From Nemertoderma westbladi (Eukaryota > Animalia > Xenacoelomorpha): a DNA stretch of 64,000 nucleotides. Below are positions 1 to 49,177 of this stretch, piece after piece (position 1 is the stretch's first letter; each line of letters opens with the position of its first letter). The notes beneath the pieces are model-generated. The model was not told where the DNA came from, did no database searches, and saw only the letters and a list, made by a program, of their open reading frames with translations. Location of the stretch: the NCBI GenBank assembly GCA_032718475.1, contig JAUCBJ010004651.1, positions 62,001 through 126,000 on the forward strand, written 5' to 3'. Position numbers and translations under genes: made by a program.

Positions 1-306
1 TCCTAAAGGAACTGTTAATATTTCCCGAAAGTTAATAATATCTGTCAGAAATTAATTATTAGTGATCTATCGAATAATACAATAGGTTTACACTGCAACC
101 TTACACTGCAATAATAAAATCTAAGCATCCGAATTCAGCCTCCCGGGTGTAGATCCATCGGGTGAATGATCGCGCATGGGCTGGCTTCGGCTAATGTTTT
201 GTTTATTAGCATAAAATATTGTCGTATGCTAAAGGTGTGTTAATTAACTAAAAGACATATAAATTTTGGCAGGTTAAACTGCTAAAGGTCTTCAAAAGCG
301 CGAACA
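1..306 (+). repeat. 3' part of the 5' LTR of element A
   Basis: No difference seen by eye from 10762-11067; ends in ACA. Confidence 0.93.
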
Positions 307-318
307 GTAACAGTTATA
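307..318 (+). promoter_or_regulatory. Non-canonical primer-binding site GTAACAGTTATA (second copy at 390-399)
   Basis: Directly abuts the LTR end; no TGG; exact reverse complement TATAACTGTTAC at 10315-10326 in the LTR. Confidence 0.65.
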
Positions 319-745
319 ATCTTATTGCAGTAGGCAATAAGGTTGCAAGTGTAGGCATTAAATACAGTTTAATACTGTTCTGTCGAACAGTAACAGTTAA
401 CGATCTTATTGCAGTAAGCAATAAGGTTGCAAAATACCGTAGTGACCGGTAAAACTGAACCGGTACTTCTGCAGGTCAGTAGGCCTAACTGTCATCACCG
501 GTACCGGTACTGCTGTACAAGTACATTTAGTATTATTTCGATTGTGATCTATTGTATATTGTAGGCTGCCAGGGGAATAGGGATTGATCACCCCTCATTC
601 TTTTGTATAGTTTACTTATTTCTGTCGGTTTTATTTACTAGTAGGCTAATATTGAGCAGAAGGCGTGTGACCCTGCTCAGATTGTTCAGATAATTGTAGG
701 CTGAGCTGCTGTCTGACTGTTGTTGAGTTTGGAGAGATTACGGCA

Positions 746-1265
746 TGTGTAGAGTTGGTCTGATCAAGTGCCGTTAGTAAGTTGGGGCAGCCATATGCTG
801 AAGGTCAATCCCCTCTTAAAGAATAAGTCGTACTACCGTGTTAGAACGCATACTAACTAACAGTTTCAGAATCTGCATATACTGTAGTTTATTTAGGCTT
901 GATCGTAGTCTGCCAGTGTTTTAGTCTGTGTTTGTTTGTGTGGTCTGTTCAGGTACCGTAATAGTTATTACTCAAATATTTTGTAGGCTAGATTGTTGTC
1001 TAGCTATTTTTAGGTCTGAAGGGATTGCTGCGTGTGTAGAGTTGGTCTGATCAAGTGCCGTTAGTAAGTTGGGGCAGCCATAAGCGGTAAGGTCAATCCC
1101 CTCTTAAAGAGTAAGTCGTACTACCGTGTTAGAACGCATACTAACTAACAGTTTCAGAATCTGCACATACTGTAGTTTTTTTAGGCTTGATAGTAGTTTG
1201 CCAGCGTTTGGTTTGTATTTGTTTGAGTATTCTCTACGGGTAGCGTAATATTTATTATTCAGAGT
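746..1265 (+). repeat. Two ~287-bp tandem direct repeats in the 5' leader of A
   Basis: TGTGTAGAGTTGGTCTGATCAAGTGCC... at 746 and 1033, near-identical for ~175 bp then diverging. Confidence 0.85.
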
Positions 1266-2587
1266 TTATGCGATTATTCGCAACATTCATGTCCCCAAGT
1301 TTATTCCTACAGTAATTGTGCTTGTTATACATACCGTTATAGTTAAACTAACCCCGGTACTACATCAGGGCTGCTTGGCGTAGGTAAAGACTGACGACTT
1401 TGTGCTTCGGTCACTCCAGCAGATGCCGTGGTTCTTTTAACTGTTCAAGTATATTTAACTACTGATTATTTGTTATACCGGTACTTGTACCTAATTTAGG
1501 GTTTAGTGTACAGTGCTTTCCGAAGTAATTAGTGTAGGCAGTATATTTGTGTTGTAAAGTGGTTGATAGGCACATTCGTTAGCTCTATTAGCTACTGGGT
1601 AGGAACAATCCGTGATACATAACGTAGTACCTATAGCGATACGGTTATAGGTCGTCAGGCGGTGGTATTTTCCTATCTGGACAACGCAGTGTATTTACTA
1701 CTACTTATTATTTTCAAATACCGTAGTACCCTGTTCATTGTAATAACCAGAATTCTAACCCTTTGTTAGGCTGGTTTGTAGACTTCCTGTAAAATTACCC
1801 TAAAAATTTTGTACGTAATATTTTTGTTGTGTTTAATTAGAGAATTAATCTCACCCATATCGTAAGTAATTTGTAGTATTAAGTAACTTAGGTAAATTAG
1901 AATTATCAGTTTTAGTGTCTCAATAAGTAACACTTCACTGACAGCGCACAGCTTCTGTGTAGTGATTCCCCCAGAAATAATAACATTTATTTCAAATATT
2001 GACAAAAAACCCATTTAAACGGGTATATATCTATTATAAATCAACTCAAACGATTTATAAGTAGTAGGCCTGCCATACAACAACTAGGTCTCAAAATCAG
2101 TTGGACTACTGCTTAAATAACGGTAACAAAGTAAGTTAAAGTAACCAAGTAACCCTAAATATTCAGAAATTCAATTATTCTAAAATAATTGACATACCGG
2201 TATTTACCATAGGCTTATTATATTTATTTCTATAAATTTGAGCTGAAATCATACCGGTATTCTGTAATCAATTTTAGTTCATAGTTATACTTTATATATA
2301 TTATAAGTGTAAGCTGTATACCGGTATCCACGATAGGCCTATTATATATTTATATATTTATATATATATTTGTGCTAAATTTATACACCGGTACTCTGTG
2401 GCAAATCTAGTCTGTAATAATACTTATATATACTATAAGCATACCGGTATTCTGATATAATATATATATATCCCGCTATATTAAGTAGCAGTATCGGTAA
2501 TTAATTATTAGGCTAGCAGTGATACTGAATTACTAGACTTGCTTTAACTGTATTTATAGCCGTAGGCATTCAACTGTGTAAACAAAC

Positions 2588-5500
2588 ATGTCGGACACAA
2601 CCCAATCACTGTCGGATAGTCTTTTGGAAAGTGTTAGAATGACTGTTAGACAGTGTCTTAAAAAGATCAGTGACCCAGATCCCAGTATAGAACATCCTAG
2701 ATCCAAGTCTAAGTCACCTCCTGCTGTAAGAAAGGCCATCCCTACCGTAGTAGTGTCAGACCCTAGACTAGTAGAACACCGTAGGTCTATCATCGGAACT
2801 CGGGCCCAAGTCAAGCGGGATCAAGAAGCAGCTATCAAACAGCAGCAACCTCCTAGCCCAGAACCTAGTTCTCAGCGGCCCGATGGCTCCAGTAGTTCGG
2901 ATACTGCTGAGCGGAGACCCGAACACGGAGCGAAGATGGCGGATACGGTTTATGATGAGCGACCAACCTTTGAAGAATCAACCGACGCTGCTTCTCCTCA
3001 AGTGGAAAGCGAAGTGGAAAGCGAAGTGGAAAGCGAAGTGGAAAGCGAATTAACAGCAGCAGAGAAGCCGCGAACTAGAGATGCCATTGACATCTATCTG
3101 TCAGACTATCAGCGATTCATAGGAGACGAAGAGTTGAGGAGACGACTGTCTGGACTTCGCCCTAATAGTGAAGGAACCAAGCTTGTGTTGGACGCACTCG
3201 ATGCCGAAATGTTAACTGCAAACCAAGCTGAATGTGATGAAAAACTCCGCCTCACTAGAGTCCGAGAAGAACAAGTAAAGAAAGAACTGATAGAGACAAG
3301 AAGGGTAGCAGCAGCAGAAGCAGCGGAAGCAGAAGCAGAAAGAAAGGCAAAAGCGGCGGAAGCAGAAGCCGAAAGAAAGGCAAAGGTGGCAGAAGCACAG
3401 CGGAGAGCTTCTGAGGAGACTATTCGATTAGAGTTGGAAAATCTGCAAGAGACACAAGACAGTATAAATAAACAGTTTACTGCTAATCAAATGCAGATGA
3501 TGAGAAAATCTACTCCCAGACGTCAGGGATACACATCATCGGAGGAAGGCGAGACCACCGATCCTGAAGGCGGAGGAAATAGATCTCATCTAAGTAGGCG
3601 TAGAAAAACATCTTACCGTCACAAATTGCCTGATTTGCCCCCAGCTGTTAGAAGACAACTAGCTAGCACAGACTTAGGTAGTACAGAACCCACAGAACAA
3701 ATTATTCAGGTCACAAGACTCCCTACAATAGTTGATGAGCCTGAAATAATTAGGCCTGTCGTTCCCAAAGTCACTTCTGTGTTAGAGACCCCTGTACTTC
3801 CAGAGCTTAACTCTAAATTCCCTTTACATAGTACTACACTGCCTGTACCCGGTGGAACAGTCCATGCAAATACCCCTGTCCAGATAGCAGAGAGAGAAAT
3901 CAATAATTTGTCTCCCGTCGTCCCGCGTCAGCCCGCTACTATGTTGGCGACTCCTGCTTCGGCGGTTGAGTGGGTGGAAGAGGGACGGCGGGGGATGAAT
4001 CTCCTGCTAGGACAGATGCAGGAGACTGTCCACCAACTTAAGGGAACAGTGAGGGAAGGTAGAGCAGAGTTGCAAGAAGTGCAGCAAAGTATCGCACTAG
4101 AACGCGATAAATTAGTCAATATACAAAAGGGCATACCAATACCCCCTGTAACATTGTGTCAACCTGTTAGGTCTGAAGTATTACATGCGCAAGGTGTGGA
4201 GCCTACACGCATCTATACTGCTAGTGAAGTAGAAACTCCTATAGCAAACCCTATTAAGGGTGATTATAGACCTGTTATTAATGATATTCCCTATAGACCT
4301 GATAATGATCCGAGAAATTTATATACCGATAATTCGATATTAAATAACACGATGGCCCAAGAAAGCTTTATGCGTCAGATGGCTAGAACAGAAGCCCGCC
4401 AAGCGGTCAAAGTGGGAGAGATCGTCAAATTCAATGGAGATGAGATGAAATGGTTACCTTTCAACGAATATTACAAAGATAGCATACAGAACTCTGTACT
4501 ATCTAACGGAGAGAAACTTAGATTCCTCATCAAGTGCTTGGAAGGACCTCCCAAGTTAATGGCGTTAAAGTTTATTGGACATCCAGATGGATTAAGACAA
4601 GTTTGGGATACATTAAACATCAGGTATGGTAACAAGGATAACATAGCTAAGTATTTGTATGCAAAATTAGTAGCCCCCAGACACTTCCTTAGTAGCGGGA
4701 TTATAGAGTTTTCAGATGAAATTCAAGAGATCTGTAGACAACTGGACTGGTTAGGTAAGTCGCATGAATATCAGAGTTCCATGGTTATTGGAGCCGTAGT
4801 CTCTACTTTACCAAAGGGTGGAGTATGTACACGCTGGGACAAGAAAGTGTTGTACATGAATGAACAACAACGACGAAGTCCTACCATGGCTGATCTCATG
4901 TCCTTCTTAGATAATGAAGTAAAATTACAACTCATAAAGCAGTCCAGAGAGAAAACATCGGAAAATAAGGTAAGTGAGAAACCCGTTTCTAGGAGAAGGA
5001 TAATACCAGTGTGTTATACTGACGACGGCGAAAGCCAAGCTTCTCAAGAAGAGGACAGCGGGAAAGACACCGAACGATCTTACTATGACAACAAGACCTA
5101 TAAAGACGTAAGTAAATACAAGTCTCGAACCAGTGACAGGAGAGAACAGGTAACAACAACTCCTCCTACGTCACCTAAGAGAATTCACGGAAGAAAGCCC
5201 GAAGAAAGAACGAGAGTGCAGAACGTTAACCAAGTTAAGGTGAGTAACATCAAACCAAAATGTGCGATGTGCGACGGGCCCCACCGTTTGAGTGCGTGTG
5301 CAGAATTCCTAAAGAAATCCCTGGCAGATAGACGTGGAGTCCTGTGGGATAAGCGGTTATGTTATAACTGTCTCAGACGCGGACACCAGCGGCGAACCTG
5401 TTACTCTGACGCAAGGTGTGCCAAGTGCGGCGCGAAACATCATAGCTTGTTGCACACGGAATTCGAACGAAACAGCCCGAGTCAGGTAAGTGAGCCCAAA

Positions 5501-6691
5501 TCACATGTCCAATTCAGTGATGTGAACGACACTGACCAAAGTTCTGAGTGGGAAGGATTCTATACGGACGAATTCTCCGATGCCAACGAATCCTGTTATC
5601 TAATAAATACCGCAGTGTATCGAGCACTTACGTACGAAAAAGACACCGACACGGAGTTCCCCCCAACCACCTTTGACAAACAACCATCTTGGAAAGCTCC
5701 AGCTTCCAACGTAGGAATCAGAGAATTTCCTGTAGTTCAAGTAAGAGTTCACGGTCTTAACAAAAGCTACATAGTGAACGCCCTCCTTGACTCCGGCAGC
5801 ACAGGAACATTCATCGATCAAGAACTAGCCGAAGATATCTTTGCTGGACAACCCAAGTTCCGGACTAAATTGAATATGTCAGGAATTATGCAGGTTTGGA
5901 AATCTACCCTAACGGCAGATTACTATGTAGGTGTGTTGTCCACCCCCCAGGATAAGTTAGGAACACAAGGTATAAGGTCAGTAAAAATGGTGGCTATAAA
6001 GAACTTTGCTACTACTCAAGCAGAACCTTATAACTGGGACGAGGACGAGTGCATCCAACATCTTGAGATACCTCGATTCCAAACCGATTATCCTGGAGTG
6101 CAAATACTCATCGGCCAAAACGCGCATGAGGCGCTCGAGCCATTAGAGAAACGGCCTGCTCAACCACAGCCACTACAAACCTATGCGGTAAGAACTAGAG
6201 TAGGTTGGTACTTCACTGGCCCTTCCCGTAGAACTCTCAAAGAGAGATTACCTCAACAACAGGTATACCAAGTAAAGGGGGAAGTGGAGAGCAGTGATGT
6301 GGACGACCCAACTGAGGGAACACCATACTCCTCAGATAATGACGATATTAACTCCAATGTAGATCAATGGAGACATTGCCTTGGGACGATTAATCCAGCC
6401 GACATCGCTTCCAGAGGAGCAACTCCTCAAGAACTGATAGATACTCCAGGCTGGATAGGTGGATCCGACTCCTTAAGAAAAGAAGAAGAAGAATGGCCTC
6501 CTCATCTTACCACGGCAGAAATTAGACAGGCCAAGGGAGCGGAGAAAGTAACACCACAACTCAATCGCCCAGCTAGTCGTTTATGTTCACTGGAAAGAGA
6601 CCGAAAACTGTCCGAAAACTATGGAAGGCAAAATACTCTTCCTACGACTACTTCCCTAATCCGACAAATATCTAGGGACTCCATAACGTGA
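2588..6691 (+). CDS. gag: Bel/Pao Gag-protease polyprotein fused in frame to the C-terminal end of the Pao RNase H region; RT and integrase missing
   Basis: KFNGDEMKWLPF..KLRFLIKCLEGPP (DUF1759-like Gag); three Cys/His knuckles (CAMCDGPH..C, CYNCLRRGH..C, CAKCGAKHHSLLH); aspartic protease LLDSGSTGTF; QWRHCLGTINPADIASRG..W (Pao RNase H end); no YVDD. Confidence 0.9.
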   Translation: MSDTTQSLSDSLLESVRMTVRQCLKKISDPDPSIEHPRSKSKSPPAVRKAIPTVVVSDPRLVEHRRSIIGTRAQVKRDQEAAIKQQQPPSPEPSSQRPDGSSSSDTAERRPEHGAKMADTVYDERPTFEESTDAASPQVESEVESEVESEVESELTAAEKPRTRDAIDIYLSDYQRFIGDEELRRRLSGLRPNSEGTKLVLDALDAEMLTANQAECDEKLRLTRVREEQVKKELIETRRVAAAEAAEAEAERKAKAAEAEAERKAKVAEAQRRASEETIRLELENLQETQDSINKQFTANQMQMMRKSTPRRQGYTSSEEGETTDPEGGGNRSHLSRRRKTSYRHKLPDLPPAVRRQLASTDLGSTEPTEQIIQVTRLPTIVDEPEIIRPVVPKVTSVLETPVLPELNSKFPLHSTTLPVPGGTVHANTPVQIAEREINNLSPVVPRQPATMLATPASAVEWVEEGRRGMNLLLGQMQETVHQLKGTVREGRAELQEVQQSIALERDKLVNIQKGIPIPPVTLCQPVRSEVLHAQGVEPTRIYTASEVETPIANPIKGDYRPVINDIPYRPDNDPRNLYTDNSILNNTMAQESFMRQMARTEARQAVKVGEIVKFNGDEMKWLPFNEYYKDSIQNSVLSNGEKLRFLIKCLEGPPKLMALKFIGHPDGLRQVWDTLNIRYGNKDNIAKYLYAKLVAPRHFLSSGIIEFSDEIQEICRQLDWLGKSHEYQSSMVIGAVVSTLPKGGVCTRWDKKVLYMNEQQRRSPTMADLMSFLDNEVKLQLIKQSREKTSENKVSEKPVSRRRIIPVCYTDDGESQASQEEDSGKDTERSYYDNKTYKDVSKYKSRTSDRREQVTTTPPTSPKRIHGRKPEERTRVQNVNQVKVSNIKPKCAMCDGPHRLSACAEFLKKSLADRRGVLWDKRLCYNCLRRGHQRRTCYSDARCAKCGAKHHSLLHTEFERNSPSQVSEPKSHVQFSDVNDTDQSSEWEGFYTDEFSDANESCYLINTAVYRALTYEKDTDTEFPPTTFDKQPSWKAPASNVGIREFPVVQVRVHGLNKSYIVNALLDSGSTGTFIDQELAEDIFAGQPKFRTKLNMSGIMQVWKSTLTADYYVGVLSTPQDKLGTQGIRSVKMVAIKNFATTQAEPYNWDEDECIQHLEIPRFQTDYPGVQILIGQNAHEALEPLEKRPAQPQPLQTYAVRTRVGWYFTGPSRRTLKERLPQQQVYQVKGEVESSDVDDPTEGTPYSSDNDDINSNVDQWRHCLGTINPADIASRGATPQELIDTPGWIGGSDSLRKEEEEWPPHLTTAEIRQAKGAEKVTPQLNRPASRLCSLERDRKLSENYGRQNTLPTTTSLIRQISRDSIT

Positions 6692-7207
6692 TAGCATGTG
6701 GAGTGGGCGTGTGGCTATATCATTTTATATTTGTTTTTATTTTATATTTATGTATGTATTATTATGTAATTTTATTATAATCGTTTTCTTTAATTTTATT
6801 TAGTAGAATGTTATTTTAGAATATTTAGTAAATTAGTGCAATATATTAGTGTTTATTACGTATTTAATTACTTACAATATATTTAGTGCGACGGCAAGAA
6901 ATAATTATTTTTCTCTTTCCTTACTGTCCGTATTATATTATAAATGCGAGACTATAGTAAGATGACATGTCAGTACTTCTTAAAGTACAATAAAGCCACT
7001 ACTATATTTAAGTATTATTGGTAGGCAGAGTATTAGGAATGCAAAGTTCAGATCCTTGTGTCTCGGCTAAGCCAAGCTCTGGGTAGACCTTGGAAACGAC
7101 TTGCCTCTTCACACTGACATTGCTTCGTGCGATATTGCTCTTCTACCTTATAACAAATAATACATATAGTAGCGTGATGTCCCTCTAACAGTAGCGTAAA
7201 TCGCAAA

Positions 7208-7780
7208 TAAATCTGTTAAACTTTTGACCATCTGTAATTCTAGTCAATTAAGATATCGTGGCACCCACCGATATACTTGAAAGACAAATTCTAGAATCAG
7301 TGGTTAACGTCCCCAGACAAGTTCTGGAATAAATCGGTGCCCATCCTAAATATTAATTTAATATTTATTAAAATCTGTAAAATTCAGATCCGTTAACGAT
7401 TCTAGTCGATTAAGATATCGTAGCACTTACCGATACTCTTAAAAGACAAATTTTATAGAATTAAGGATCCTAAGTCCCCAGATATGCTCTGGAATAAAAT
7501 TTGTGTCAATTTAACATCAAATAATAAAATTCACGGGAATAAATTTAAATTCATATTCAAATGAATTTCATAAATTGTCATTTTGTGCAATTTATAACAT
7601 TCCCAAAATTCCAGTAATTAATAGATCATGGGAGCGGAGATTCATATTGAGTGTATTAGAGTGTGAGAATCTCCAACATATAGTCAATAGCCGATAAAAT
7701 TTATAAAATCATGCATAAAGAGGATATTGACAATTAAAGAATTACTATTAAATAACATCCCAGATCTGTATGCATGAGAA
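7208..7780 (+). ncRNA. Three tandem predicted structured RNA modules between pol remnant and accessory ORF
   Basis: Copies at ~7208-7345 and ~7370-7510 with covarying stems; third divergent module ~7613-7777; shared TAGTC..GACAA(A)TT and (T)CCCAGA motifs. Confidence 0.5.
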
Positions 7781-8309
7781 TTACCCTAATTCTACCGCTA
7801 GTTTTCCATAATGTCACCATGGCAACACCCACGCTAGAATTAGAAGCAAGTTAAAGGAACAATAAAGGCTTGCCCCATTGCGTAGCATAAGAGAATACAT
7901 AGCGCACTATTAGTATCCAAGGATACATAGTAATAACGTGACATTCTGGAAGACAATGACTAACGGACAAAATGGCTTGCATGTGTGCAGTAAGTAATGA
8001 TTGTATGGAATTTGTGCGTTTATAGGTGAATGATACTACTAAAGTGTGTTTACAGTAGCTAATCGCAATTGTAAAGTAGCCTAACTCTACCGAGATAACC
8101 TCAAGTGGATTCAAGCCTTTGGGACGGACAGTGGTGGGACTTGTGTCGATTATCGTTGTCGTGCTGTTGCTACATGTTGGCGCAAACACCGCGACAACGG
8201 TACATCGGCGCTGAGAAACCCACTGTCCGGGGTCAAAGACTAGTAGGCAGCGACGCCCGCTTGCCTAAATATTGACTCATACTAATATTAATAAACTCAG
8301 ATAGCAGAT

Positions 8310-9759
8310 ATGACGGAATTAATAGAAGATGACCTTGGTATTAGAGAGCGATATACTCTACCTTTACAAGCGTTTGTGGATAGCTTGATACGCGGTGAAG
8401 CCGATCCGACTATTACGGAGGACGATGGTCATTATATCGAACCGCCGATGTCCCAAGAGCAACTTACGCGTGAATTGGACTATCGAAAATTAACCGCTCG
8501 CTATACGCATCGTAATGGTACGTATATGGACTTCTTAACTACCGGCCATCCTATCGATTTACATGATACGGACAATGTAGACACCCTAAAGGGAAATGGT
8601 TCTATTTAAATATCATACCCAGCGGAGTCGTAACGATAAACCGAGAATAGATCACGAAAATTCTATTCGTAACAGACTGGGAAGACGAACCAATATGCCT
8701 AGAATCTGAGGAGATTCAGCCTATCGCGCTCGGAACAGCGACTACGATTACAGCCTAGAATGGTATCAAAGTCCACAGTGTCTCACTGCGTACGATTATC
8801 GCCATGCCAACTATGTTTCTCGGCAACGTTGTCGGTTATGCGCATCGAGAGACCATGTTACGCCCATGGACACAAACGTCCGCTGTTCCTATTTCCACGA
8901 ACAACCGGCGATGGAAATTTATTGCGCGTATTGCAGATTTAATAATTTGCACATTTTTGCGGTTTGCCCTCAATTTATGACTCAATGTCACCATTGTCAA
9001 CTAAAGGGACATGCCAGTTTCGATTGCCCTTTTAATCACGATTTGGAAAGCGTAGATGAAATGATCACACTACGTTACATCAGAGCTTGGGAAGCGAACA
9101 CTGATTTATATTGTGATTCGCGCCATCGCTATTATCCCGGACGCGCTTACGAAGGAGTTTATGCATTACATCCTTATCTATTCGCTTCGGTTGAACAGAA
9201 ATCACGCATATCAAGTTACGAGCTACTGAAGCGCGTCGGAGAATGTATTTCAACCAAATTCGTACGCAAATTTCTCAGGAGTGTTAATCCTAGCGACCTT
9301 CATCCCTATAACTTAATCAATCATATCCGTCAGGATCCGGACTATGGAGACTTATTCGTCAACTCACACCCTGAGTTACAGGAAGTATATCGACGGCCTT
9401 ACGAGTACCGAGCCCGCGAACGCGAGTTGGAAAGAACCATTAAACCAAGGAAGTTTCTAACTGCCTATGGTCCACCCACGGCCCTCGTGCAGACCACTCG
9501 TACAGGACCCGTAAGAGCGGCTGTCTTGAAACGAGCTCTCAAAGCCGTTAGACCCCTCTCCCCGGACGTTGATGTCAATCAACCCGGTACTTCGACCGGC
9601 GGATATACCGATCGCAATCCCATACCTTCTGATGCAATCATATTGCACCCTTCACCCAGGAGTTATAGCCCTCCTCGTAAAGTGGCTCGCCCCAAAGAGA
9701 AAAGGACTCTTGCTAGCTTTAAAAAACTGCGTAAACGCCGTCCGCGCAAGAAAGACTAA
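8310..9759 (+). pseudogene. Deleted, frameshifted copy of the accessory ORF (paralogue of 11733-15986); keeps the N-terminus and C-terminal zinc-knuckle/NLS part
   Basis: MTELIEDDLGIRERY start and FKKLRKRRPRKKD end identical to the 1417-aa ORF; +1 frameshift near 8586; ~2.8-kb deletion near 8690. Confidence 0.9.
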
Positions 9760-9837
9760 CTGTTTAGAGTATTTACGTATATTAGAAACTGTGATTTTTG
9801 TATATTTATAGACTCAAATCCCATTTTCTGGGAGCGG

Positions 9838-11067
9838 TGTAAAAGCTTCTGTGGGATATAACTGGCCCCTTTTGCTTCGCAATCCAGTTTCCCCCCAGGC
9901 GCTGGAATACTCTAAAAAGGTTCTCTAACTGTATATATATTCCCCTCGCCCGCAAGGTACCGTTACAGGTGTTTTAACGGACATAAAAGTCATTCTGCTA
10001 TATACGTGTTTTAGCGGACATGGTAAGGCAAAAAACCTGCAATGCACCAAATACCTTTCACAGCTTAGCCGTGATGATTCATATTACGACATCTAACAGC
10101 TGGTTGCTGACATGGAAACAGCCATTGGATGCATGGTTCTTTGTTTGGCTTGAGCCAATCAGAGCGTTTTTTCCTGTCGACGTGTAGCTTTTCGGCCGAT
10201 CATAAGGAGAGTGTTCAGTCTTACTGTTTTTACTTGATACTTTGTTGTTATTGCTGTCTAAGCCAGAAACACCGGCTCTAAGAACTCTAGTAAAACTGCT
10301 TAGATTATAGAAAGTATAACTGTTACCGGCAGTGTTACCTCACTTAATTTAATTGCACTAATCATATTGTTTGTACTGCTATTTACCGTCAGTTATTAAT
10401 TGTATCTATTTGTTGATGGAAATATTGCTCTTTGGAGAATACGGATAAATCACCCCAAATTCCCAATTTTCTTGATACACTACAGGTTAGAGAGGCGGGC
10501 TATATATAACAATTGCGATTTATATCAATGTGGTGTGTATTGAATCTAATGTTATTTAGTAGACACTACCTGAGTCAATTGCTGTTCTCTTTATGTGTGA
10601 TCAAATATACTGACGGTCGGCAGAATAGTGTGCATGATTGTGAGTGTGATGTGACTGGTAACAAAGCATTTCCTAAAGAATGCGACTTATACTTTAATCA
10701 TAAGCCTTATCGTTGCGTTTAGTATAAGTCCTAGCTCTGTTTAAATAGATAGAGCGCCACGTCCTAAAGGAACTGTTAATATTTCCCGAAAGTTAATAAT
10801 ATCTGTCAGAAATTAATTATTAGTGATCTATCGAATAATACAATAGGTTTACACTGCAACCTTACACTGCAATAATAAAATCTAAGCATCCGAATTCAGC
10901 CTCCCGGGTGTAGATCCATCGGGTGAATGATCGCGCATGGGCTGGCTTCGGCTAATGTTTTGTTTATTAGCATAAAATATTGTCGTATGCTAAAGGTGTG
11001 TTAATTAACTAAAAGACATATAAATTTTGGCAGGTTAAACTGCTAAAGGTCTTCAAAAGCGCGAACA
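9838..11067 (+). repeat. 3' LTR of element A (1230 bp, TGT...ACA)
   Basis: Preceded by PPT-like TGGGAGCGG; CCAAT box AGCCAATCAG ~10154; end matches 1-306. Confidence 0.9.
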
Positions 11068-11155
11068 GGCCCTACCAGTAAATTTAGAAATAGTTTGTAA
11101 ATATTTTATATTTCGATTGGTGAAAACAGCCTTACTTACTGTTTTCATGGAGCGG

Positions 11156-11527
11156 TGATGAATTATTTCACTATAAGATAGCATTTGTAGTTTAACTTTA
11201 ACGTAAAAACTTTCGAAAATCCGACGTATTTTGATTAAGTTACAGTAATGTAATATGCCTATTCATATTTGTACACATAAAACCCTTAGGTACTCTCGTG
11301 GCGTAGTGGTCAGATGGTTAAGGCGTTGGTTACATTACATAGGTTACGAGTTCGAATCCCAGTCGGGAAATTTGTATTTTGGGGCCATTTATTTTCGTGT
11401 GGTGCTAATTGGTAGGCCAATGAGAAGCGTACAGCGTAGCGAATGATGAGCCAGGCCAATCATAGGGCATAAATTATCTTATTGCTCAAATGTGAGGCAG
11501 TGGAAAATTCTGTTAGGATTCCATGCT
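11156..11527 (+). mobile_element. Truncated LTR of a further Bel/Pao family ('D') with tRNA-like Pol III boxes
   Basis: PPT-like GGAGCGG then TGATGAATTATTTC, similar to the start of the element C LTR; A/B-box-like sequence at ~11300-11365 followed by CCAAT boxes. Confidence 0.5.
11299..11370 (+). ncRNA. tRNA-like sequence (degenerate A box, B box GAGTTCGAATCCC), not a functional tRNA
   Basis: TGGTCAGATGG and GTTCGAATCC at tRNA-like spacing; no convincing acceptor or anticodon stems. Confidence 0.55.
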
Positions 11528-11732
11528 AAGCCTTTGGGACGGACAGTGGAGTGACTTGTGCCGGTTATCGTTGTCGTTGTACAGCTACGTCGTTGGCGAA
11601 AGTACAGCTACAGCGGTACATCGGCGCTGAGAATCTCCTACTGTCCGGGGGCAAGGGAGAAATAGGCAGCGACGCCCGCTCGCCTAACGATATATAAACT
11701 CATTATAATATTGGTGAACTTGTATAGCAGAT

Positions 11733-14700
11733 ATGACTGAATTAATAGAAGATGATCTTGGTATCAGGGAGAGATATACTCTACCTTTACAAGCGTTTGT
11801 CGATAGCTTGATACGCGGCGACGCTGATCCAACTACTACGGAGGACGATGGTCGTTATATCGAACCGCCAATGTCCCAGGAGCAACTTACGCGTGAATTG
11901 GATTATAGAAAGTTCACTGCTCGCTACACGCATCGTAATGGTACGTATATGGACTTCTTGACCACTGGTCATCCTATTGATTTACACGATACGGACGATG
12001 TAGACACCGAAAGGGAAATGGTTTTATTTAAATATCATGCCCAGCGGAGTCGAAACGATAAATTGAGAATAGAACACGAGAACTCTATTCGAAACAAACT
12101 CGAAAGAGAAGACGTTGAAGAACCTGATAAACGTAACGGTTTCAACGATTATCTAGAATTCTTACGAGAGACCTATCTCAATGTTGCCAGTCAACAAAAC
12201 CTCGAAACTCGATATCCCCAAGGTATACATCCAGATCCTATAATGGAACTCAAACGGCTCTATTTTACGATGATGTATCTTACCGCCGATCGACCGCTAC
12301 CTGTCGTTCCAGATAGCTTCGAACAGATGGAGGAATATTGTAAAACTGGAGAGCGATCACCCGCGTTTCCCCTTCAAGACGTGCGTCTTTGGTATTACTG
12401 TGACGAATGCCCTAGACCTAACCAGCAAATCGAAAGGCATAAACATCCTCGGAGACGTTGCGCTAAACACAGTTTTACGCGATATACTTATGGGAGTTTC
12501 GAGCGTAACCTTTTCGACGTATCACCTACGGTCGCGCGCCTTAAGCGATCATTGAATAAACCCATGATCAGAGTTCCGGAATACTCGGTCAGACCTCCCC
12601 ATTCACAAGTGATACCTCAAACTCTAGATCCTAATAGTATTACGGATCCTCCCGAACTGTACTCACTGTTCAAAGATCTAGTGTTACCTGAACAGTTGAT
12701 TGGTGGCACTCCGGTAGTGGGTTCGTTGGATATTCGCCAACCTTACCTCGCTGGACTAGGACGCGGTCATCTAATATCACCGTTTAACCCCTACAACCGT
12801 CCTGGCCTTCCTCCGATCCAACCTGTTACAGAAGTCGAAGAGAGCGTGATACGAAATGCATTGGACGCTATTCGGCAGAAAATCGGAAAAGGAACTTACG
12901 ATTGCTTGGAGAAACGTAAATTGCAACAACAAGTCCAAGCGGTGAAAGAACTAGCTTTACCCCAGTTCGATAGAGAAATACAAAATCTAGAGGAGGACAT
13001 CGAACGTGGACGAACCTACTCTTTACAGGAATTCCTGGACGAGCGCTTGCAACAACAAGCGGAGGAAAATCAACTCGAGGAGAGACATATAGAGCTGACT
13101 GAGAGGGAAGAAGCAGCTTTAGCCCAACCAGAAGCTCAAATTCTAGTGACGGATCTCTATTCCAAAACGATCCTCCACCCCTCGATGGTTCCTCAGTTTA
13201 AAGACAAGCTCTTTGCTACGGTACAGCCTCAACCGGTTAATACTGATCTCAGCTCTCACGAGCTCGTTGCTGATGCTCCCATGCTACAACGTCCACCCAT
13301 CGAGGCCGCTCGTGTAGATGGTTTACTTGTTGAGCCTCCGGACAATAGAGCGGATCTTGTCCGTCGCATGGTGCACGATGTTAACATACGCGCTAGACCT
13401 TTGCCGGACTCATTTTATGGAATTAAGGATCATCCTTATTACGTCAATTTAAAGCAATATTACATGGTGAAACCAGAAGATCCTACGCATAGTCTGAAGT
13501 TTCTACCATTGATCAATCCTCTCGACCTTGTCGAACTCGAACAACTACAAAAACACCTAGATCAGCTAGTTAAACTAAACTCATTTAGAAAACCGTATAA
13601 TATTTCTAGAATAGAGAAAGAAATATCACCTCCGTACAATCTTGATGGATTTATTAAAACTCGATTGGTGCACTGGAATCTTGACGTGTTATTCGAGGAA
13701 GAAAGAATAAAACGATATGGAGATGTGGAAACCTATACTACACAATGCTTAAAGTATGGAGATTTACCCAATGCTAACGAGTGTGCTACTTTGTGGCATC
13801 CAGTGGGAATGACTCTCGAAAACGCCACTAAAGAATGGAACGAGACTCTTAACGTTATCGAGATGTATGGCGTTGTTACTTACGACAACGAAGGTAGCGT
13901 TCCGGTGGGAGAACTAGGAACTACGCGAATGATACATATACGAGGACTCGCTGGTTCTACCCACGTATTCACTCGAGCGTGTTCTGACGTGATTGATTAT
14001 TCTTTTGAAACTCTTACGGAGATACAAAAGAAACTTCGACATGGACAATTCGAACTCGCGCAGCGTTACGTCACCGACACCGAACGCAAACCGGCCATGG
14101 GTATCGATGGATCAATATTACCCCAACCTGTACTCGCAATGTTGTTTAACGAAAGAATTCTAAAAATCGGCTCAGCTGTTTATGGAGATCTCCAAAACGA
14201 CTTCCGGAATATGGAGAACATTCCATACCCTTTCGTTGATACTCAGCTGATTGCTCCTTGGGCCGAAGGCCGAGGTTTCTTTCGCACTATGTATGCCAAT
14301 ACACCCAGCGGCATTACTAAAGTACAACGGACATCCATCGGACATCTTGCCTTTCAAGAATATGGTTGGAATTTCAAAGTTGGAAATCCTATAAATTACC
14401 AGCAAGTATATGGGGATCATTACTCTCGTTTATATTTTGATGGACCGTTAACTGCGCCTGGTGCCGTATATAGCTTTATGAGTGTTCCCCTTCGCCCTTC
14501 CTTAGCTATATACACGATCTTTGAAAACGCAGCACTTGCCGGTTGGCTAGCCGATGTGTGCAGTCGTACCATACGCGCTCACCCGTTAATACTTGGAACT
14601 AAACTCGCCAAGTTAGACGAACACAATAAGTTCATACGTTTCGAATGTTTCCGGTGCTTTCCGACTCCGTTCCGTAACGTCGATAGTCAGTTCAAGGACC

Positions 14701-15986
14701 GCGCGCTGACCAAGCTCAGTCTTAGAGACTCAGCTGCGGAGAAACTGAGTAGCGCTGGATTTGCCGTCTTTCAAGACGTTTCTATACAGAACCTACATTC
14801 ATCCGTTATACAAAGACCCCGAATATCTACAGGTTATTCTGTCGTGGAAATACAGACAGTGGGTCCACTTACGGAAACCGACGCACCCACTTCGTCTATG
14901 CAGCTGGAGGATGAACCAGTATGCTTGGAATCAGAAGCGATTCAACCTACGGCTTCCCGGAGCAGTGACAATGATTATGTCATAGAGTGGTATCAAGGTC
15001 CACAGCGTCTCACAGCGTACGATTATCGACACGCCAACTACGTTTCCCGAAAACGTTGTCGATTATGCGCATCGAGAGACCACTTCACTCCTCTAGACTC
15101 GAGCGTACCTTGTTCCTATTTCCTCGAACAACCGATGATGGAAATATATTGTGCTTATTGCCGGCTTAATAACTCTCATATATTTGCCGTCTGCCCACAA
15201 TTTATGACTCAATGTCACTACTGCCAACTTAAAGGACACGAAAGTTACAATTGTCCCTTTAATCGCGATTTAGAGAGCGTAGACGAGATGATCACCCTGC
15301 GATACATCCGAGCTTGGGAAGCGAACGCAGATTTACATTGCGAATCCAGACATCGCTATTACCCTGGACGAGCTTACGAGGGAGTTTACGCGTTCCATCC
15401 TTACCTATTCGCGTCGATTGAACAGAAAACACGCGTACCAAGTTACGAGTTAATAAAGCGTGTTGGTGAGTGTATTTCCACCAAGTTTGTCAGAAAATAC
15501 CTTAGAAATATCAACCCTAATGATATAACCACATATCACCTGATCAATTTTATCCGTCAGGACCCTGAGTATGGCGACATTTTCGTGAACTCGCATCCTG
15601 AACTCCAGGAAGTATCTCGGCGCCCATACGAATATCGAACCCGAGAACGCGAGCTGGAGAGAACCATTAAACCGAGAAAGTTCCTCACCACTCACGGTCC
15701 ACCCACCGCTAGTGTCCAGACGACCCGTCAAGGACCCGTAGGAGCTGCTGTCCTGAGACGCGCTCTAAAGGCCGTTAGATCTCGCTCCACTGAGGTTGAT
15801 ATTAATCAACCAGGTACTTCGACCGGCGGGTATACCGATCGTAACCCTGCACCTTCTGATGCAATTATATTGCACCCTTCGCCTAGGAGCTACAGCCCTC
15901 CTCGTAAAGTGGCTCGCCCCAAAGAGAAAATGACTCTTGCTAGCTTTAAAAAACTGCGTAAACGCCGTCCGCGCAAGAAAGACTAA
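11733..15986 (+). CDS. Accessory retrotransposon protein (1417 aa): WRN/EXD-like DEDDy 3'-5' exonuclease domain, CCHC zinc knuckles, C-terminal basic NLS
   Basis: ExoI GVVTYDNEG (D718,E720); ExoII LPQPVLAMLFNERILKIGSAVYGD (D819); FVDTQLIA; SIGHLA..YG..K; ExoIII-like PLRPSLAIYTIFE (Y927,E931); CHYCQLKGHESYNC and CAYCRLNNSHIFAVC; KKLRKRRPRKK. Confidence 0.78.
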   Translation: MTELIEDDLGIRERYTLPLQAFVDSLIRGDADPTTTEDDGRYIEPPMSQEQLTRELDYRKFTARYTHRNGTYMDFLTTGHPIDLHDTDDVDTEREMVLFKYHAQRSRNDKLRIEHENSIRNKLEREDVEEPDKRNGFNDYLEFLRETYLNVASQQNLETRYPQGIHPDPIMELKRLYFTMMYLTADRPLPVVPDSFEQMEEYCKTGERSPAFPLQDVRLWYYCDECPRPNQQIERHKHPRRRCAKHSFTRYTYGSFERNLFDVSPTVARLKRSLNKPMIRVPEYSVRPPHSQVIPQTLDPNSITDPPELYSLFKDLVLPEQLIGGTPVVGSLDIRQPYLAGLGRGHLISPFNPYNRPGLPPIQPVTEVEESVIRNALDAIRQKIGKGTYDCLEKRKLQQQVQAVKELALPQFDREIQNLEEDIERGRTYSLQEFLDERLQQQAEENQLEERHIELTEREEAALAQPEAQILVTDLYSKTILHPSMVPQFKDKLFATVQPQPVNTDLSSHELVADAPMLQRPPIEAARVDGLLVEPPDNRADLVRRMVHDVNIRARPLPDSFYGIKDHPYYVNLKQYYMVKPEDPTHSLKFLPLINPLDLVELEQLQKHLDQLVKLNSFRKPYNISRIEKEISPPYNLDGFIKTRLVHWNLDVLFEEERIKRYGDVETYTTQCLKYGDLPNANECATLWHPVGMTLENATKEWNETLNVIEMYGVVTYDNEGSVPVGELGTTRMIHIRGLAGSTHVFTRACSDVIDYSFETLTEIQKKLRHGQFELAQRYVTDTERKPAMGIDGSILPQPVLAMLFNERILKIGSAVYGDLQNDFRNMENIPYPFVDTQLIAPWAEGRGFFRTMYANTPSGITKVQRTSIGHLAFQEYGWNFKVGNPINYQQVYGDHYSRLYFDGPLTAPGAVYSFMSVPLRPSLAIYTIFENAALAGWLADVCSRTIRAHPLILGTKLAKLDEHNKFIRFECFRCFPTPFRNVDSQFKDRALTKLSLRDSAAEKLSSAGFAVFQDVSIQNLHSSVIQRPRISTGYSVVEIQTVGPLTETDAPTSSMQLEDEPVCLESEAIQPTASRSSDNDYVIEWYQGPQRLTAYDYRHANYVSRKRCRLCASRDHFTPLDSSVPCSYFLEQPMMEIYCAYCRLNNSHIFAVCPQFMTQCHYCQLKGHESYNCPFNRDLESVDEMITLRYIRAWEANADLHCESRHRYYPGRAYEGVYAFHPYLFASIEQKTRVPSYELIKRVGECISTKFVRKYLRNINPNDITTYHLINFIRQDPEYGDIFVNSHPELQEVSRRPYEYRTRERELERTIKPRKFLTTHGPPTASVQTTRQGPVGAAVLRRALKAVRSRSTEVDINQPGTSTGGYTDRNPAPSDAIILHPSPRSYSPPRKVARPKEKMTLASFKKLRKRRPRKKD

Positions 15987-16064
15987 CTGTTTAGAGTATT
16001 TTTGTATATTAGAAATTGTGATTTTGTATATTTTATAGACTTAAATCCCATTTTCTGGGAGCGG

Positions 16065-17277
16065 TGTAAAAGCTTTTGTGGGATAACTGATTCGTTTGCC
16101 TTGTTGGCCAGTTCCCCCCCGGTCGCTAGAATAGTGCAAGCTTTAATAGCACGCTTAAAATAGTGCAAGCTACCAGCTTATTGGCTGATTTGCTGTACGC
16201 AGGTATCTGGGCTCTGTTTAATCGGCCAACTAGCCTAGGAAGGTTGCGTCATAGCCTTGTTTTTGTATCTCCCAATAGAATTTGAGTTAGCCTTGATTTT
16301 GACCTATCACAGAGCTACTGAACTGAAAATTTCCTATCTCACTGCTCTTTCTCTGTGTTGAACGGGAGCTTCGTGGAATAAGGGTAGTTGGTATCCTCGT
16401 ATAGAGAGTAGTCACGAGTTTTTCAAAGCCACGAAAGAACGGCTTTTTAGTGTTTTGTGCTTTCTGCTTTTTAGCTCAACACTAGTAGGTTTAATTATAA
16501 GGACATATATCCTTTAACTGCAATTTCGTAATCACTGCAAACTGCTGACGCACACGGCTTTTAATCTTGAATATCTCACTGCTAAAAATTACCTGCTCAA
16601 TCAATACGGTATACTGCTATTTGTTGTCGGTTATTCATTATATTTGTTGATGAATTATTATATTGGAATAACGAGAAATAACCCCGAAAACCCAATATTC
16701 TTGATATACCGAAGGTAAGAGAGAAAGGTTACCTATAACGATTGTGACTTATGTTAAAGTGGTTTGAAGTGAATCTAATGTTATTTGATAGACCCTACAT
16801 GAGTCAGTCTGTGTTCCTTTTATATGTGACTAAAATCAGTGAAGATTGGCAGATTAGTGTGCAGTATTGTGCAGCATTGTGTATGAGTGAGTCTGTTAAA
16901 GAAGCAATTCCTAAAGAATGCGCCATATATGTGAATTATAATTAAGCCATATCGTTGTGAGTAGTTTAAGTCATAACTCTGTTTATATAAATAAAGCGCC
17001 ACGTCCTAAAGGAACTGTTAATATTCCCTAAGGTGAATAATATTGTCAGAGATTATATAATACTGTCAGTCGAATAATACATTAGGCTTACATAGCAATA
17101 AAATTAAACCGTCGAACCCAATCTCCCGGGAATATCCAGCGGGTGAATGATCGCGCACAGATTGGTTTCGACTAGTGTAGTGAATCAAATTCTTGTCATA
17201 GGCTAAAAAGCGATTTAATATCTAGAAGACATCTTAATTTGGCGGATTAAACTGCCAAAGGTCTGAAAGCGCGAACA
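16065..17277 (+). repeat. 3' LTR of element B (1213 bp, TGT...ACA)
   Basis: PPT TGGGAGCGG|TGTAAAAGC; ends AAAGCGCGAACA; 3' half homologous to LTR A. Confidence 0.88.
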
Positions 17278-17482
17278 GTGGGCGTATTAAAAAGTATCAG
17301 ATAAGGCATATAAACTACTACATAACTTGTTGAAATCGGAGTAGGAGATAAAGGTTTATTAAGTTATTTTTATCACACTGACAACATTGAAACCTTCCTT
17401 ACATACCGTGTAGTGCGTTACATACCACTAATAAACAGAAACTAACCAACATAACTTAATTCAAACCATTTTATTGTATCAG

Positions 17483-18678
17483 GGCGAACGTCGAGTATCA
17501 GCCACGAAGTGCTCGGGTTCGATACCGAGGGAAACCCATTGGATTTCTCCAACGGGCGAACTGTAGAGGAAATCTGTGAAACCGCCTCCAAACTCATCAC
17601 ACTCATAGACCTCGCCGGCCACCACAAATACCTAAAGACCACGATATTCGGGCTCACAGGCCACTGTCCCGACTTCGCTATGCTTGTCGTCGGCGCCAAC
17701 ATGGGTCTGGTCGGCATGGCTCGCGAGCACCTGGGCATCGCGCTCGCCCTCCAGGTCCCCATATTCGTGGTCGTCTCCAAGATCGATCTGTGCCCTGCGC
17801 GGGTCACGGACGCCACTTTGCGGCAGGTCGAGTCCCTGCTGAAGAGCCCCGGGTGCAACCGGGTCCCGCACCGGGTCGTCGACGCCGGTGACGTCACCGT
17901 CGCGGCGCAACGTTTCCCGGAGGGCGCCGTGACCCCGGTGTTCGCGATCTCGTCCGTGTCCGGGGAGAACCTCGGGTTGCTGAAGCGGTTCCTCAACCTG
18001 TTGGCGCCGGGCCGCAGTCGGGTGGAGTTGGAGAGGCTGAGTCAGGAGGAGACGGAGTTCCGTGTGGAGGAGACGTTCGAGGTGGGGGCCGTGGGTGGCG
18101 CTCTGTGTGGTGAGGGGGGCGCGGGGGGCACTCAGTGCGGCTCGGGGGGCACTCAGTGCGTGGTTGGGGGAGCCTTACAACGCGGCGTCGTCCGCGAAGG
18201 CGACGAACTGGCTGCGGGGCCGCGAGTCGACGGCTCTTTCTTCCGGGTCCGAGTGGTCTCGGCGCGCCGCAACCGGACCCCGTGCCGCGTGGTCCGCGCC
18301 GGCCAGTGCGCCACGCTGGCGCTGGAGGGCGCTACACCCTCGGCCTACCGCAAGGGGATGGTGTTGCTGAGCGGGTTGCTTGGGGTTCACGCCTGCGACA
18401 CGTTCGAGGCCGACGTCTACGTTCTTTTCCACGGGAGCGCCATCTGTCGCGGCTTCCAGGCCACCGTCCACGTAGGTAATGTGTGCCAGACCGCCGCGAT
18501 AGTTCGTCTCAGCACCACTAAGGGGCTGCGGACTAACGAGACCGCCACCGTGACCTTTCGCTTTCTGCGTCACCCAGAATTTATTAACGTCGGCGCTAAA
18601 CTCCTCATGCGAGAACGATCTACTAAGGGGATTGGACACGTTACTAAAACCTTCCCAATGGGCGACGACCCAACGTGA
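17483..18678 (+). CDS. GTPBP2: GTP-binding protein 2 (translational GTPase, EF-Tu/eEF1A-like), terminal exon; upstream exons outside the window
   Basis: Acceptor TTTTATTGTATCAG|; GRTSSISHEVLGF..EEICETASKLITLIDLAGHHKYLKTTIFGLT; REHLGIALAL; SKID (G4); beta-barrel domains to TKGIG; TGA at 18676. Confidence 0.9.
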
Positions 18679-45009: not shown

Positions 45010-46075
45010 TGGTAAGGCAAAAAACCTGTAATGCATTAACTACCTTTCACAGCTTAGCCGTGATGATTCATATTACGACATCTAACAGCTGGTTGCTGAC
45101 ATGGAAACAGCCATTAGATGCATGGTTCTTTGTTTGGCTTGAGCCAATCAGAGCGATTTTTCCTGTCAACGTGTAGCTTTTTAGTCGATCATAAGGAGAG
45201 TGTTCAGTCTTACTGTTTTTTCTTGATACTTGGTTGTTATTGCTGTCTAAGCCAGAAACACCGGCATTTTTTGGATAGATACTGCTGTACCGTAAACTGC
45301 TTGAATTATCGAAAGTATAAACTGTTACCGGCGGTGTCACCTTACTTAATTAACATACTCACTTAATTTAATTGCAATAATCATATTGTTTGTACTGTTA
45401 TTTTACCGTCAGTTATTAATTGTAAATATTTGTTGATGGAAATATTGCTATTTGGATAATACGGATAAATCACCCAATTCCCAATTTTCTTGATAACACT
45501 ACAGGTTAGAGAGACCGGCTATACATAACAATTGCGATTTATATTAATGTGGTGTGTATTGAATCCAATGTTATTTAGCAGACCCTACGTGAGTCAATTA
45601 CTGCTCTCTTTATGTGTGATCAAATGTACTGACTGTCGGCAGAATAGTGTGTATGATTGTGACTGGTAACAAAGTATTTCCTAAAGAATACGCTTTATAC
45701 TTTAATCATAAGCAGTATCGTTGCGTTTAGTATAAGTCCTAGTTCTGTTTAAATAGATAAAGCGCCACGTCCTAAAGGAACTGTTAATATTTCCCGAAAG
45801 CCAATAATATCTGTCAGAGATTAATTATTAACGATCTATCGAATAATACATTAGGTATACACTGCAACCTTACACTGTAATAATACAATTCAAGCATCCG
45901 AATTCAGTCTCCCGGGTGTAGATCCATCGGGTGAATGATCGCGCATGGGCTGACTTCGGCTAATGTTTTGTGTATTAGCATAAATTATTGTCGTATGCTA
46001 AAGTGGTTTTAATTAACTAGAAGACATATAAATTTTGGCAGGTTAAACTGCTAAAGGTCTTCAAAAGCGCGAACA
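45010..46075 (+). repeat. LTR of the A family (may extend to 44347 with a different U3)
   Basis: Aligns to 10021-11067 with scattered substitutions; ends GCGCGAACA; no TSD found. Confidence 0.9.
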
Positions 46076-46159
46076 GGTTCTGTCTCACCGTCAACAGTTA
46101 CTGTTGACGGTTGACTACTGTAGTACCAATAACAAAAATAGAACAAATATCTTTGAACC

Positions 46160-48401: not shown

Positions 48402-49177
48402 TGTTGGAAGAGACGTACCTAATACACGGAATCCTGCAATATCATACTGTAAAGTCTGTGAATCAAAGCATAAATCCAACCTTCTCACCAAAACAGTAAA
48501 CTCTAAGTAAGCAAATCTATTGCAGTATCGGTCTCTTATAACCAGTGAGGCAGAAGACAGTCTACGAACGGACAAACTTCGATAAAACAAAATCCCGCGC
48601 AGCGAATCCTAAAATCGTGCTGACTCACTGACGGACTAAAGGCGCTCGTATACTTTGCCGCGGTGTGATTTATATGGGGTGGGTGAGGGTTGCTAGCTAA
48701 GGGTCTAACTAGCGGGCAAACTGCAGTACGGACAAAATTATTTTATATATTTCGAGGTGTAAATAATTCTTAACGCGTGTGTGTTTTGATTCTAACAGTC
48801 GAAATCGGTTTTAGATCCTTCACATATATAATTACTGGGTCCGGTGTACATTTTACAAATATTCTAATTTTGTAGTTTGTAGGTCCAATACTCACAAATG
48901 ATAAGGCTCCTTCCCCTTTTGTGTATTTCCAGGACTCAAATTCAGGCATAAGGTTAATACTACGCACGGAATTCGGCAATTTAATTTAACAGGTCCCTAA
49001 TACTAAGAAGAAATGTGTTAGTTTATTACAGTAGGCGTACAGTTACGAATATCTAGCCTGGCTTTCTATCTAGAATTTTGGTTGCCTAGGTGGGCACGGC
49101 AACTCCTTATCAGAATGTCGGCGGGGACACGGTAGATGTTAGTATCCCTAATAGCCTTAATTTATATGTGCGCCTAG
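48402..49177 (-). repeat. 3' LTR of C, truncated at its U3 end
   Basis: Matches 55984-56742 apart from a few substitutions and a 16-bp indel. Confidence 0.92.

Follow-up and report, generated by a model that had tools for sequence, protein, structure and literature searches.

Predicted Tf1-Like Self-Priming in Bel/Pao-Lineage Retrotransposons from Nemertoderma westbladi

Introduction

How does a retrotransposon begin reverse transcription when no site for a transfer RNA (tRNA) follows its long terminal repeat (LTR)? The question is raised by a stretch of 64,000 nucleotides from the xenacoelomorph Nemertoderma westbladi (GenBank assembly GCA_032718475.1, contig JAUCBJ010004651.1, positions 62,001 to 126,000 of the forward strand). 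This whole stretch, hereafter the window, carries two related Bel/Pao-type elements, A and B, within its positions 1–17277 and a third element, C, on the minus strand at 57878–48402. An earlier note, made from the letters of this DNA and placing its candidate system at 1–17277, so that C lies outside, had proposed that these are tRNA-independent, self-primed retrotransposons with an exonuclease of their own. Judging from the sequences compared below, self-priming itself, independent of tRNA, is very probable; the part assigned to the exonuclease needs a different account.

[quoted passage not shown] Priming from the element's own RNA is, in the passages of PMC6317226 and PMC7175516 concerned with it, described for Tf1/sushi and Tcn1 and predicted for TAR; the same passages name RNase H cleavage as the route to the Tf1 primer and give, as the criterion for self-priming, a complement of at least 10 bp within 0–5 nt. 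Extra open reading frames (ORFs) with DEDDy motifs are described in bdelloid rotifer elements in the relevant parts of PMC5408684. If self-priming holds for the elements of the window and their relatives, a third LTR superfamily also has it. The tRNA rule would then break down across a wide branch of animal elements, which would escape annotation tools that depend on a tRNA site. Nematode Cer elements have reportedly been proposed to encode a tRNA-like primer of their own, a proposal for which our literature search found no paper.

Results and Discussion

Primer Sites and the Elements' Own LTRs

Element A extends from the window edge to 11067 and has lost its reverse transcriptase (RT) and integrase. 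The 3' part of its 5' LTR (1–306, plus strand; the window edge cuts the rest) ends in ..GAACA, is 100% identical to 10762–11067, and is followed with zero spacer by the primer-binding position GTAACAGTTATA (307–318, plus strand). These first 12 bases behind the LTR are the exact complement of 10315–10326 (plus strand), the predicted self-primer of A, inside the 1230-nt 3' LTR (9838–11067, plus strand). As controls, we used the dinucleotide-shuffled LTR of the element itself in 10,000 trials, or in 5,000 when the start of the site was allowed to vary over offsets of 0–4. None of the 10,000 shuffles of A gave such a match. For C, the first 11 bases behind the 5' LTR (GTAGGAATGTG, 55983–55973, minus strand) are the exact complement of its predicted self-primer at 56997–56987 on the same strand, with three of 10,000 shuffles reaching as much; with variable offsets, the counts were 10 of 5,000 for A and nine of 5,000 for C. 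Both complements are unique in the window, and TGG is absent from the LTR edge of both elements. The 12-nt and 11-nt complements reported in the earlier note are thus exact and hold up against the controls.

The leader of B lies outside the window, and a contig of run X4 served as an outside test. There, the 12 letters behind the LTR end (17277) are the exact complement of 16506–16517 (plus strand), the predicted self-primer of B, which lies roughly as far from the LTR end as its counterpart in A; five of 10,000 shuffles matched this. The words of A, B, and C match the LTRs of the other families over only 4–6 nt. All three complements (12 nt in A, 12 in B, and 11 in C) start at the first base after the LTR, within the published bounds of at least 10 bp within 0–5 nt. 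The GTA start that the earlier note saw at the sites of A and C was rejected as a shared feature: the word of B does not begin in this way, so GTA is not general, and the relatives described below share GT or AT.

The junction of LTR end and primer site is duplicated, as had been noticed before, both in A (300–348 and 384–432, plus strand, the second unit repeating the LTR end, the primer site, and a stem arm and holding a second site at 390–399 that pairs over 10 nt) and in C (second copy of the site at 55959–55949). The stem between LTR and leader that was said to enclose this junction stands for A, where its arms fall at about 86–114 in the LTR and about 321–352 in the leader (both plus strand) and the fold is strong (z = −6.1; 0 of 200 shuffles). 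In C, the stem requires the leader that follows the duplicate (3 of 200 shuffles); with the sequence immediately after the first site, it is lost (197 of 200). When we folded C with a start of our choosing, at the complement, and ran on through the leader, site and complement paired with a probability of 0.97. Among 12 families of relatives, none had an LTR–leader stem that beat the shuffles, and the stem was rejected as a conserved feature. Of the 147 variant places that public contigs show on C, the 40 listed include none in the complement, with too few rows to count as conservation.

Class of the Elements

The elements carry the proteins of the Bel/Pao superfamily. DUF1759 was recognized in the Gag of A (expectation value, E, 8e-12) and of C (E 6e-9) and Peptidase_A17 in C (E 9e-36), and PF05380 occurs in 17 of the 23 RT matches. 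The LTRs, the polypurine tract, and the target duplication expected of Bel/Pao elements are present, the last being seen for C only, and the order of protease, RT, and RNase H is visible in C, the integrase being deleted in both A and C. LTRs, purine tract, target duplication, and the order of Gag, protease, RT, and RNase H are features shared with Belpaoviridae. The LTRs of A and C have no BLAST similarity to each other, and the description of two Bel/Pao families with dissimilar LTRs and no TGG primer site is correct. The nearest RT matches are proteins of sea urchin, cnidarian, hemichordate, nemertean, limpet, and goby; no Bel/Pao relatives were found among viral contigs. C sits on a long branch of a quick tree, in no supported group, with a best identity of 40%.

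In other respects, the elements leave the family profile. The 18-nt site for tRNA-Arg or tRNA-Gly is missing from A and C, and we therefore call them Bel/Pao-lineage elements departing from the profile rather than textbook members. The profile describes the third ORF as env-like and LTRs of 0.2–1.2 kb (PMC8742986), whereas here the third ORF is nuclease-like and the LTR of C, at 1.9 kb, is longer.

Split Complements in Related Families

Relatives were sought with an alignment of proteins related to the RT of C, and the best 80 of at least 461 confirmed loci, all on metagenome contigs (L001–L080), were taken further; they form 45 families. In 12 of these, the LTR end is fixed by LTR–LTR comparison alone. 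At these ends, the unbroken complement measures 4–7 nt, no better than in shuffles where tested. The short match is preceded by a pyrimidine tract and AG, and the remaining complement lies upstream, in front of a GT donor that mostly reads GTAAG or GTGAG. When the GT..AG intron is removed, 10–15 exact nt result in 10 of the 12 families, as compared with 0–7 of 300 shuffles and 0–12 of 255 other combinations of end dinucleotides; the other two give 11 nt, one with the sequence of the 3' LTR or of a sister copy (L066/L067) and one at offset 5 (L006). Pairs taken across families score lower, except for close sisters and a few matches of 10–11 nt when any GT is allowed.

The families were then covered by a de novo search for split complements, with block-shuffled controls and rules that were relaxed twice after inspection. 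Weak 9-nt calls (the first call for L019 and those for L068, L070, and L079) and a call off the LTR end in L033 were dropped, and for L012, L034, and L066 the top de novo match gave way to the site at the LTR end that had been fixed independently. A split complement is found in 24 of the 45 families, with an LTR intron of 71–371 nt; two families (L057 and L062) have an unbroken 12-nt complement (0 of 50 and 1 of 50 shuffles) and two the acceptor half alone. Complementarity is present in 26 of the 45 related families (24 split, two unbroken), and with the three different pairs of the window it gives good support, at the level of sequence, to the tRNA-independent self-priming that had been proposed.

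The split sites start with GT in 21 of the 24 families and with AT in three. The predicted primer ends in ..AC in 21 of them, and the base after it is C in 20; of the ..TAC end given in the earlier note, the AC part is retained and the T is not. Elements with paired LTRs have the intron in both. Split families are scattered across the whole quick tree, which omits 12 of the 80 loci and in which long branches meet at C, itself a long unplaced branch. The spread of predicted sites suggests that a wide branch of Bel/Pao elements probably shares self-priming.

The same pairing can be read as a regulatory fold that hides the site, the true primer being a host tRNA fragment or some other small RNA. 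The tRNA-Arg or tRNA-Gly priming given for the family (PMC8742986) agrees with this, as do the half-tRNA primers without TGG known, in the passages we have on them, from plant copia elements. TGG, however, lies within 7 nt of the LTR end in only one of the 12 fixed-end families, and that family also has a split complement; past their first two bases, the sites vary between families and track the LTR of their own element, not a fixed sequence, and the first base of the site is exactly where the pairing stops. A tRNA fragment or small RNA as the true primer is, on this evidence, quite improbable. Neither ARAGORN nor Rfam finds a tRNA gene in the window.

Several observations weigh against self-priming as we read it. 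In the window, the pair of B comes from a single contig; an A-type LTR piece standing alone (45010–46076, plus strand, 89% identity) carries one extra base in its complement, with a match of only 9 nt; and two ACA|GTA junctions, at 7191 and 59674, have no complement longer than 7 nt in the upstream DNA searched, where the LTRs may be truncated. Promoter-like words stand upstream of the complement, by 100 nt in A and by 416–463 nt in C. Among the relatives, 17 of the 45 families gave no call, seven of them with 770–1850 nt of upstream sequence and 10 with less than 200; two of the 24 split calls and one unbroken call (at offset 6) were gained by rules relaxed after looking; and the LTR ends of L057 and L062 lack independent fixing. 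The relatives are also distant, with a best identity of 40% for C and 21–26% for the Gag of A. An intron-split complement was also considered for the junctions at 7191 and 59674 and was rejected, none being found there.

From LTR RNA to Primer

The favored route, in which self-priming proceeds from the element's own RNA cut by its own RNase H while the extra protein does another job, is in our judgment moderately probable as a whole. As poly(A) words lie downstream of it, the LTR site would be transcribed from the 5' LTR and would fold onto the primer site; the element's RNase H would then cut the RNA, as in Tf1, just past the last paired base, usually following ..AC, and the RT would go on to copy the 3' part of the LTR. 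Our preference for RNase H, at work on the 5' copy, has three grounds: this is the route described for Tf1, no extra gene is needed, and the end is a near-constant ..AC|C. Since promoter-like words lie upstream, the primer may not consist of the first bases of the RNA and, unlike in Tf1, may carry a longer 5' part.

The primer of most relatives would come into existence only once the LTR intron had been spliced out. The presence of the intron in both LTRs sets a constraint on the RNA: splicing for the primer has to take place in one LTR copy, and the other has to be left unspliced to be copied; the intron would persist if the 3' LTR copy is the one that remains unspliced and templates that part. 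For the window families and two relatives, the primer would be ready-made, a state that loss of the intron would yield if the change ran in that direction. We think it likely that the branch dropped tRNA priming, with most primers assembled by the spliceosome across an LTR intron and some, including the three of the window, ready-made after intron loss. If true, the intron-split primer couples the onset of reverse transcription to the host's splicing and demands that splicing act on a single LTR copy, the second being left unspliced.

Two sources other than RNase H could supply the primer end. One is the element's own cleavage and polyadenylation end in the 3' LTR, which would provide a 3' OH with no further enzyme. 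The poly(A) words are misplaced for this: none of 22 relatives has one in the 40 nt preceding the primer end, 18 of the 22 have one past the acceptor, and the AATAAA words of the window lie 377–578 nt downstream of the complement, the nearest upstream word being 66 nt away, in C. On these positions, the primer end was rejected as a poly(A) site, and we hold a polyadenylated primer to be highly improbable. The other source is a host nuclease, by small-RNA-guided slicing or as a cellular exonuclease; the relatives encode no extra nuclease and, as predicted, already rely on host splicing to build their primer. However, sequences that are otherwise very different end almost constantly in ..AC|C, which seems to fit one enzyme of the element better, and Tf1 uses its own RNase H, so that a host nuclease is an improbable maker of the primer end.

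The Extra ORF and Its RNase D-Like Protein

Element B (11528–17277) is reduced to an open extra ORF of 1417 aa (11733–15986, plus strand), with an AG acceptor-like site immediately before its ATG, and to a 3' LTR of 1213 nt (16065–17277, plus strand), about 73% identical to the LTR of A across the 3' 700 nt. A has a broken copy of the ORF (8310–9759, plus strand) that retains the N- and C-terminal parts and has the nuclease part deleted near 8685. In the parts that both retain, which lie outside the nuclease part, the ratio of nonsynonymous to synonymous change (dN/dS) between A and B is 0.046 and 0.089, and synonymous changes make up 24 of the 33 listed variants of the ORF in public contigs. 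The extra ORF is real and is conserved under strong purifying selection.

The accessory ORF with DEDDy motifs and zinc knuckles that the earlier note described is confirmed at the level of motifs. The RNase D-like domain of B (13878–14531, plus strand) has D-x-E at 13878–13895, D at 14178–14195, and, with Glu for Asp, Y-x-x-x-E at 14511–14531, and three Cys knuckles follow at 15057 to about 15260 on the same strand. A search among 1.8 billion representatives gave a sole relative, P0001 (E 7e-5), and additional searches found no further ones. P0001, encoded on one 9449-base contig, has 648 aa and the same layout of nuclease and knuckles, and it matches a 12-sequence RNase D/PolI profile with an hhalign probability of 92%. 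The window protein alone matches this profile only in the second motif block (hhalign probability 21%); it has a weak match to an RNase D model (E 0.008), its Atlas features stand at 0.91 to PF01612 clusters, and Pfam gives no nuclease match for it. An alignment of 14 sequences puts D-x-E (ExoI) and D (ExoII) on the motifs of RNase D/PolI, while alignments of two sequences place the ExoI motif elsewhere. The Y-x-x-x-D of ExoIII is not found: P0001 has Y-x-x-x-E, as does the window protein by pairwise alignment, its third motif being left unplaced by the joint alignment. Structure predictions of the protein reach predicted local distance difference test scores of 30 and 34 only. The motif evidence makes membership in the RNase D-like family likely.

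Outside the Gag knuckles, neither the extra ORF nor P0001 has a match in any of the 80 related loci. The purine tract lies 85–544 nt behind pol in 40 of the 80, which leaves no room for an extra ORF there, and the loci without it include the unbroken-complement families L057 and L062. Self-complementary sites, split or unbroken, thus exist in relatives without the ORF, so it is probably not required for self-priming. The link between the exonuclease ORF and the type of primer site that the earlier note had drawn fails for the wider branch, and we find no support for a priming exonuclease as part of one combined system, the relatives sharing the layout without the ORF; these relatives are distant, however, and the A/B lineage may differ from them in this. 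We conclude that, as judged from its distribution, the extra ORF is probably unneeded for priming and serves another job.

A trimming role for the protein should nevertheless be weighed. Here, too, the element would prime itself; in A and B, its exonuclease-knuckle protein would shorten an LTR-derived RNA, be it a 5' piece left by a loose cut or the copy in the 3' LTR, until the duplex is reached and so make the 3' OH. The strong purifying selection on the ORF would accord with such a role, as would the habit of the RNase D-like class of trimming structured RNA ends, the nucleocapsid-like knuckles, and the long LTRs of the A/B lineage, with a poly(A) word 377–578 nt behind the primer; the rotifer paper, in the part that concerns such ORFs, suggests that they process the 3' end of element RNA (PMC5408684). 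Set against this are the absence of the ORF from all 80 related loci, two unbroken-complement families included, the Glu in place of Asp in the third motif, and the deletion in C of the region that would hold the ORF. Trimming by the A/B protein is, on balance, rather unlikely, and the fuller history in which the branch dropped tRNA priming in the manner described above and the A/B lineage in addition acquired an exonuclease-knuckle protein to trim its RNA to the primer end, for which no parallel is known, appears unlikely as well.

If RNase H makes the primer end, as we prefer, the extra protein may act on RNA in defense evasion or RNA clean-up, unnecessary for priming, and may be made from a spliced subgenomic RNA. 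Donor-like words stand at matching places in the LTRs of A and B, 158–196 nt behind the complement (10485 and 16696), and AG precedes the ATG of the extra ORF in both (8307 and 11730); together, these suggest such a spliced RNA.

Known Systems

The window elements would work like Tf1 and yet are not members of the Tf1/sushi group. In the passages available on Tf1/Tf2 of Schizosaccharomyces pombe, on Tf1/sushi, and on Tcn1, these chromoviruses likewise have a site of 11–12 nt behind the 5' LTR that is complementary to their own LTR RNA and have no tRNA site. The Tf1 group, however, belongs to Ty3/gypsy; the window elements have none of the proteins of Ty3/gypsy chromoviruses and, with Pao Peptidase_A17 and DUF1759, belong to a different superfamily. 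The Tf1 primer is, in the same passages, made of the RNA's initial 11 bases, whereas the window elements have promoter-like words 100–460 nt upstream, and RNase H cleavage has been shown for Tf1 and is inferred for the window elements only. An intron-split primer such as that predicted for the 24 related families was not found in the literature searched. The TAR lineage of plant Ty1/copia elements is similar in that self-priming was predicted from LTR complementarity by the same criterion; it differs in superfamily and kingdom, and the passages on it mention no intron-split primer or nuclease ORF.

As for the extra ORF, the LTR elements Juno and Vesta of rotifers, together with Athena, likewise carry an RNase D-like ORF3 between pol and the 3' LTR, with one acidic residue changed and its function unknown, in the parts of PMC5408684 that describe it. 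These rotifer elements are not described there as Bel/Pao, and the change, compared by description, is DEED in contrast to the Glu in the last motif here; the window domain also sits within a protein of 1417 aa with three knuckles, unlike ORF3 as described in those parts. The conserved nuclease-like ORF thus extends to Bel/Pao a type of gene reported from rotifer retroelements. A look-up of PBS, tRNA, and self-prim in PMC5408684 gave 0 matches, and term look-up found no text on PBS or tRNA in PMC554778 and PMC3118150; the passages on hand from PMC8220671, PMC3601003, and PMC5443660 hold nothing on Bel/Pao priming. No report of Bel/Pao self-priming, of an intron-split primer, or of a DEDD ORF in these elements was found in the literature covered, where the slash spelling was probably missed in part, and subscription journals, Repbase, GyDB, and supplements may hold one. 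What appears new here is Tf1-like self-priming, as predicted from sequence, in a Bel/Pao lineage.

Other Features of the Window

The remaining parts of the elements are as follows. In A, a Gag-protease ORF (2588–6691, plus strand) has DUF1759, Cys knuckles, and a weak aspartyl protease match, and behind it comes a short piece resembling the end of an RNase H, RT and integrase being absent; the purine tract GGGAGCGG lies immediately 5' of the 3' LTR. The stretch 6699–8113 inside A is noncoding, starts with TG, and contains a 100-nt duplication (7237/7399), the ACA|GTA junction at 7191, and a GGGAGCGG word at 7630; it may be a nested element with deletions. In the flanking DNA, the base next to the right end of each of the three A/B-type LTRs is G (11068, 17278, and 46077), by chance or by target preference.

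C, read on the minus strand, begins with a 5' LTR of 1895 nt (55984–57878) that starts with TA, not TG, a start set by the 5-bp target duplication TAACG. Its gag-pol (49205–55141) has stops and frameshifts and ends within RNase H, the integrase and any extra ORF being deleted, and a remnant of the 3' LTR (48402–49177) is 97% identical to the end of the 5' LTR. A piece resembling the end of this LTR (75% over 145 nt) lies at 59330–59710 on the plus strand and is followed by three consecutive ACA|GT junctions and then by a long 36/38-bp tandem array.

Two tRNA-like segments have A-box and B-box words, one at 11286–11365 (plus strand) and one at about 57761–57680 (minus strand), with CCAAT words behind each; ARAGORN and Rfam call neither, and comparison by eye shows no match to the primer sites. 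The former stands behind a GGAGCGG|TG junction (11149–11157) that resembles the LTR start of another family, and the latter sits in the upstream part of the LTR of C. Directly behind element B, a single GC-rich open frame (17455–18678, plus strand) encodes elongation-factor-type GTPase domains and resembles the C-terminal part of a GTPBP1/2-type gene.

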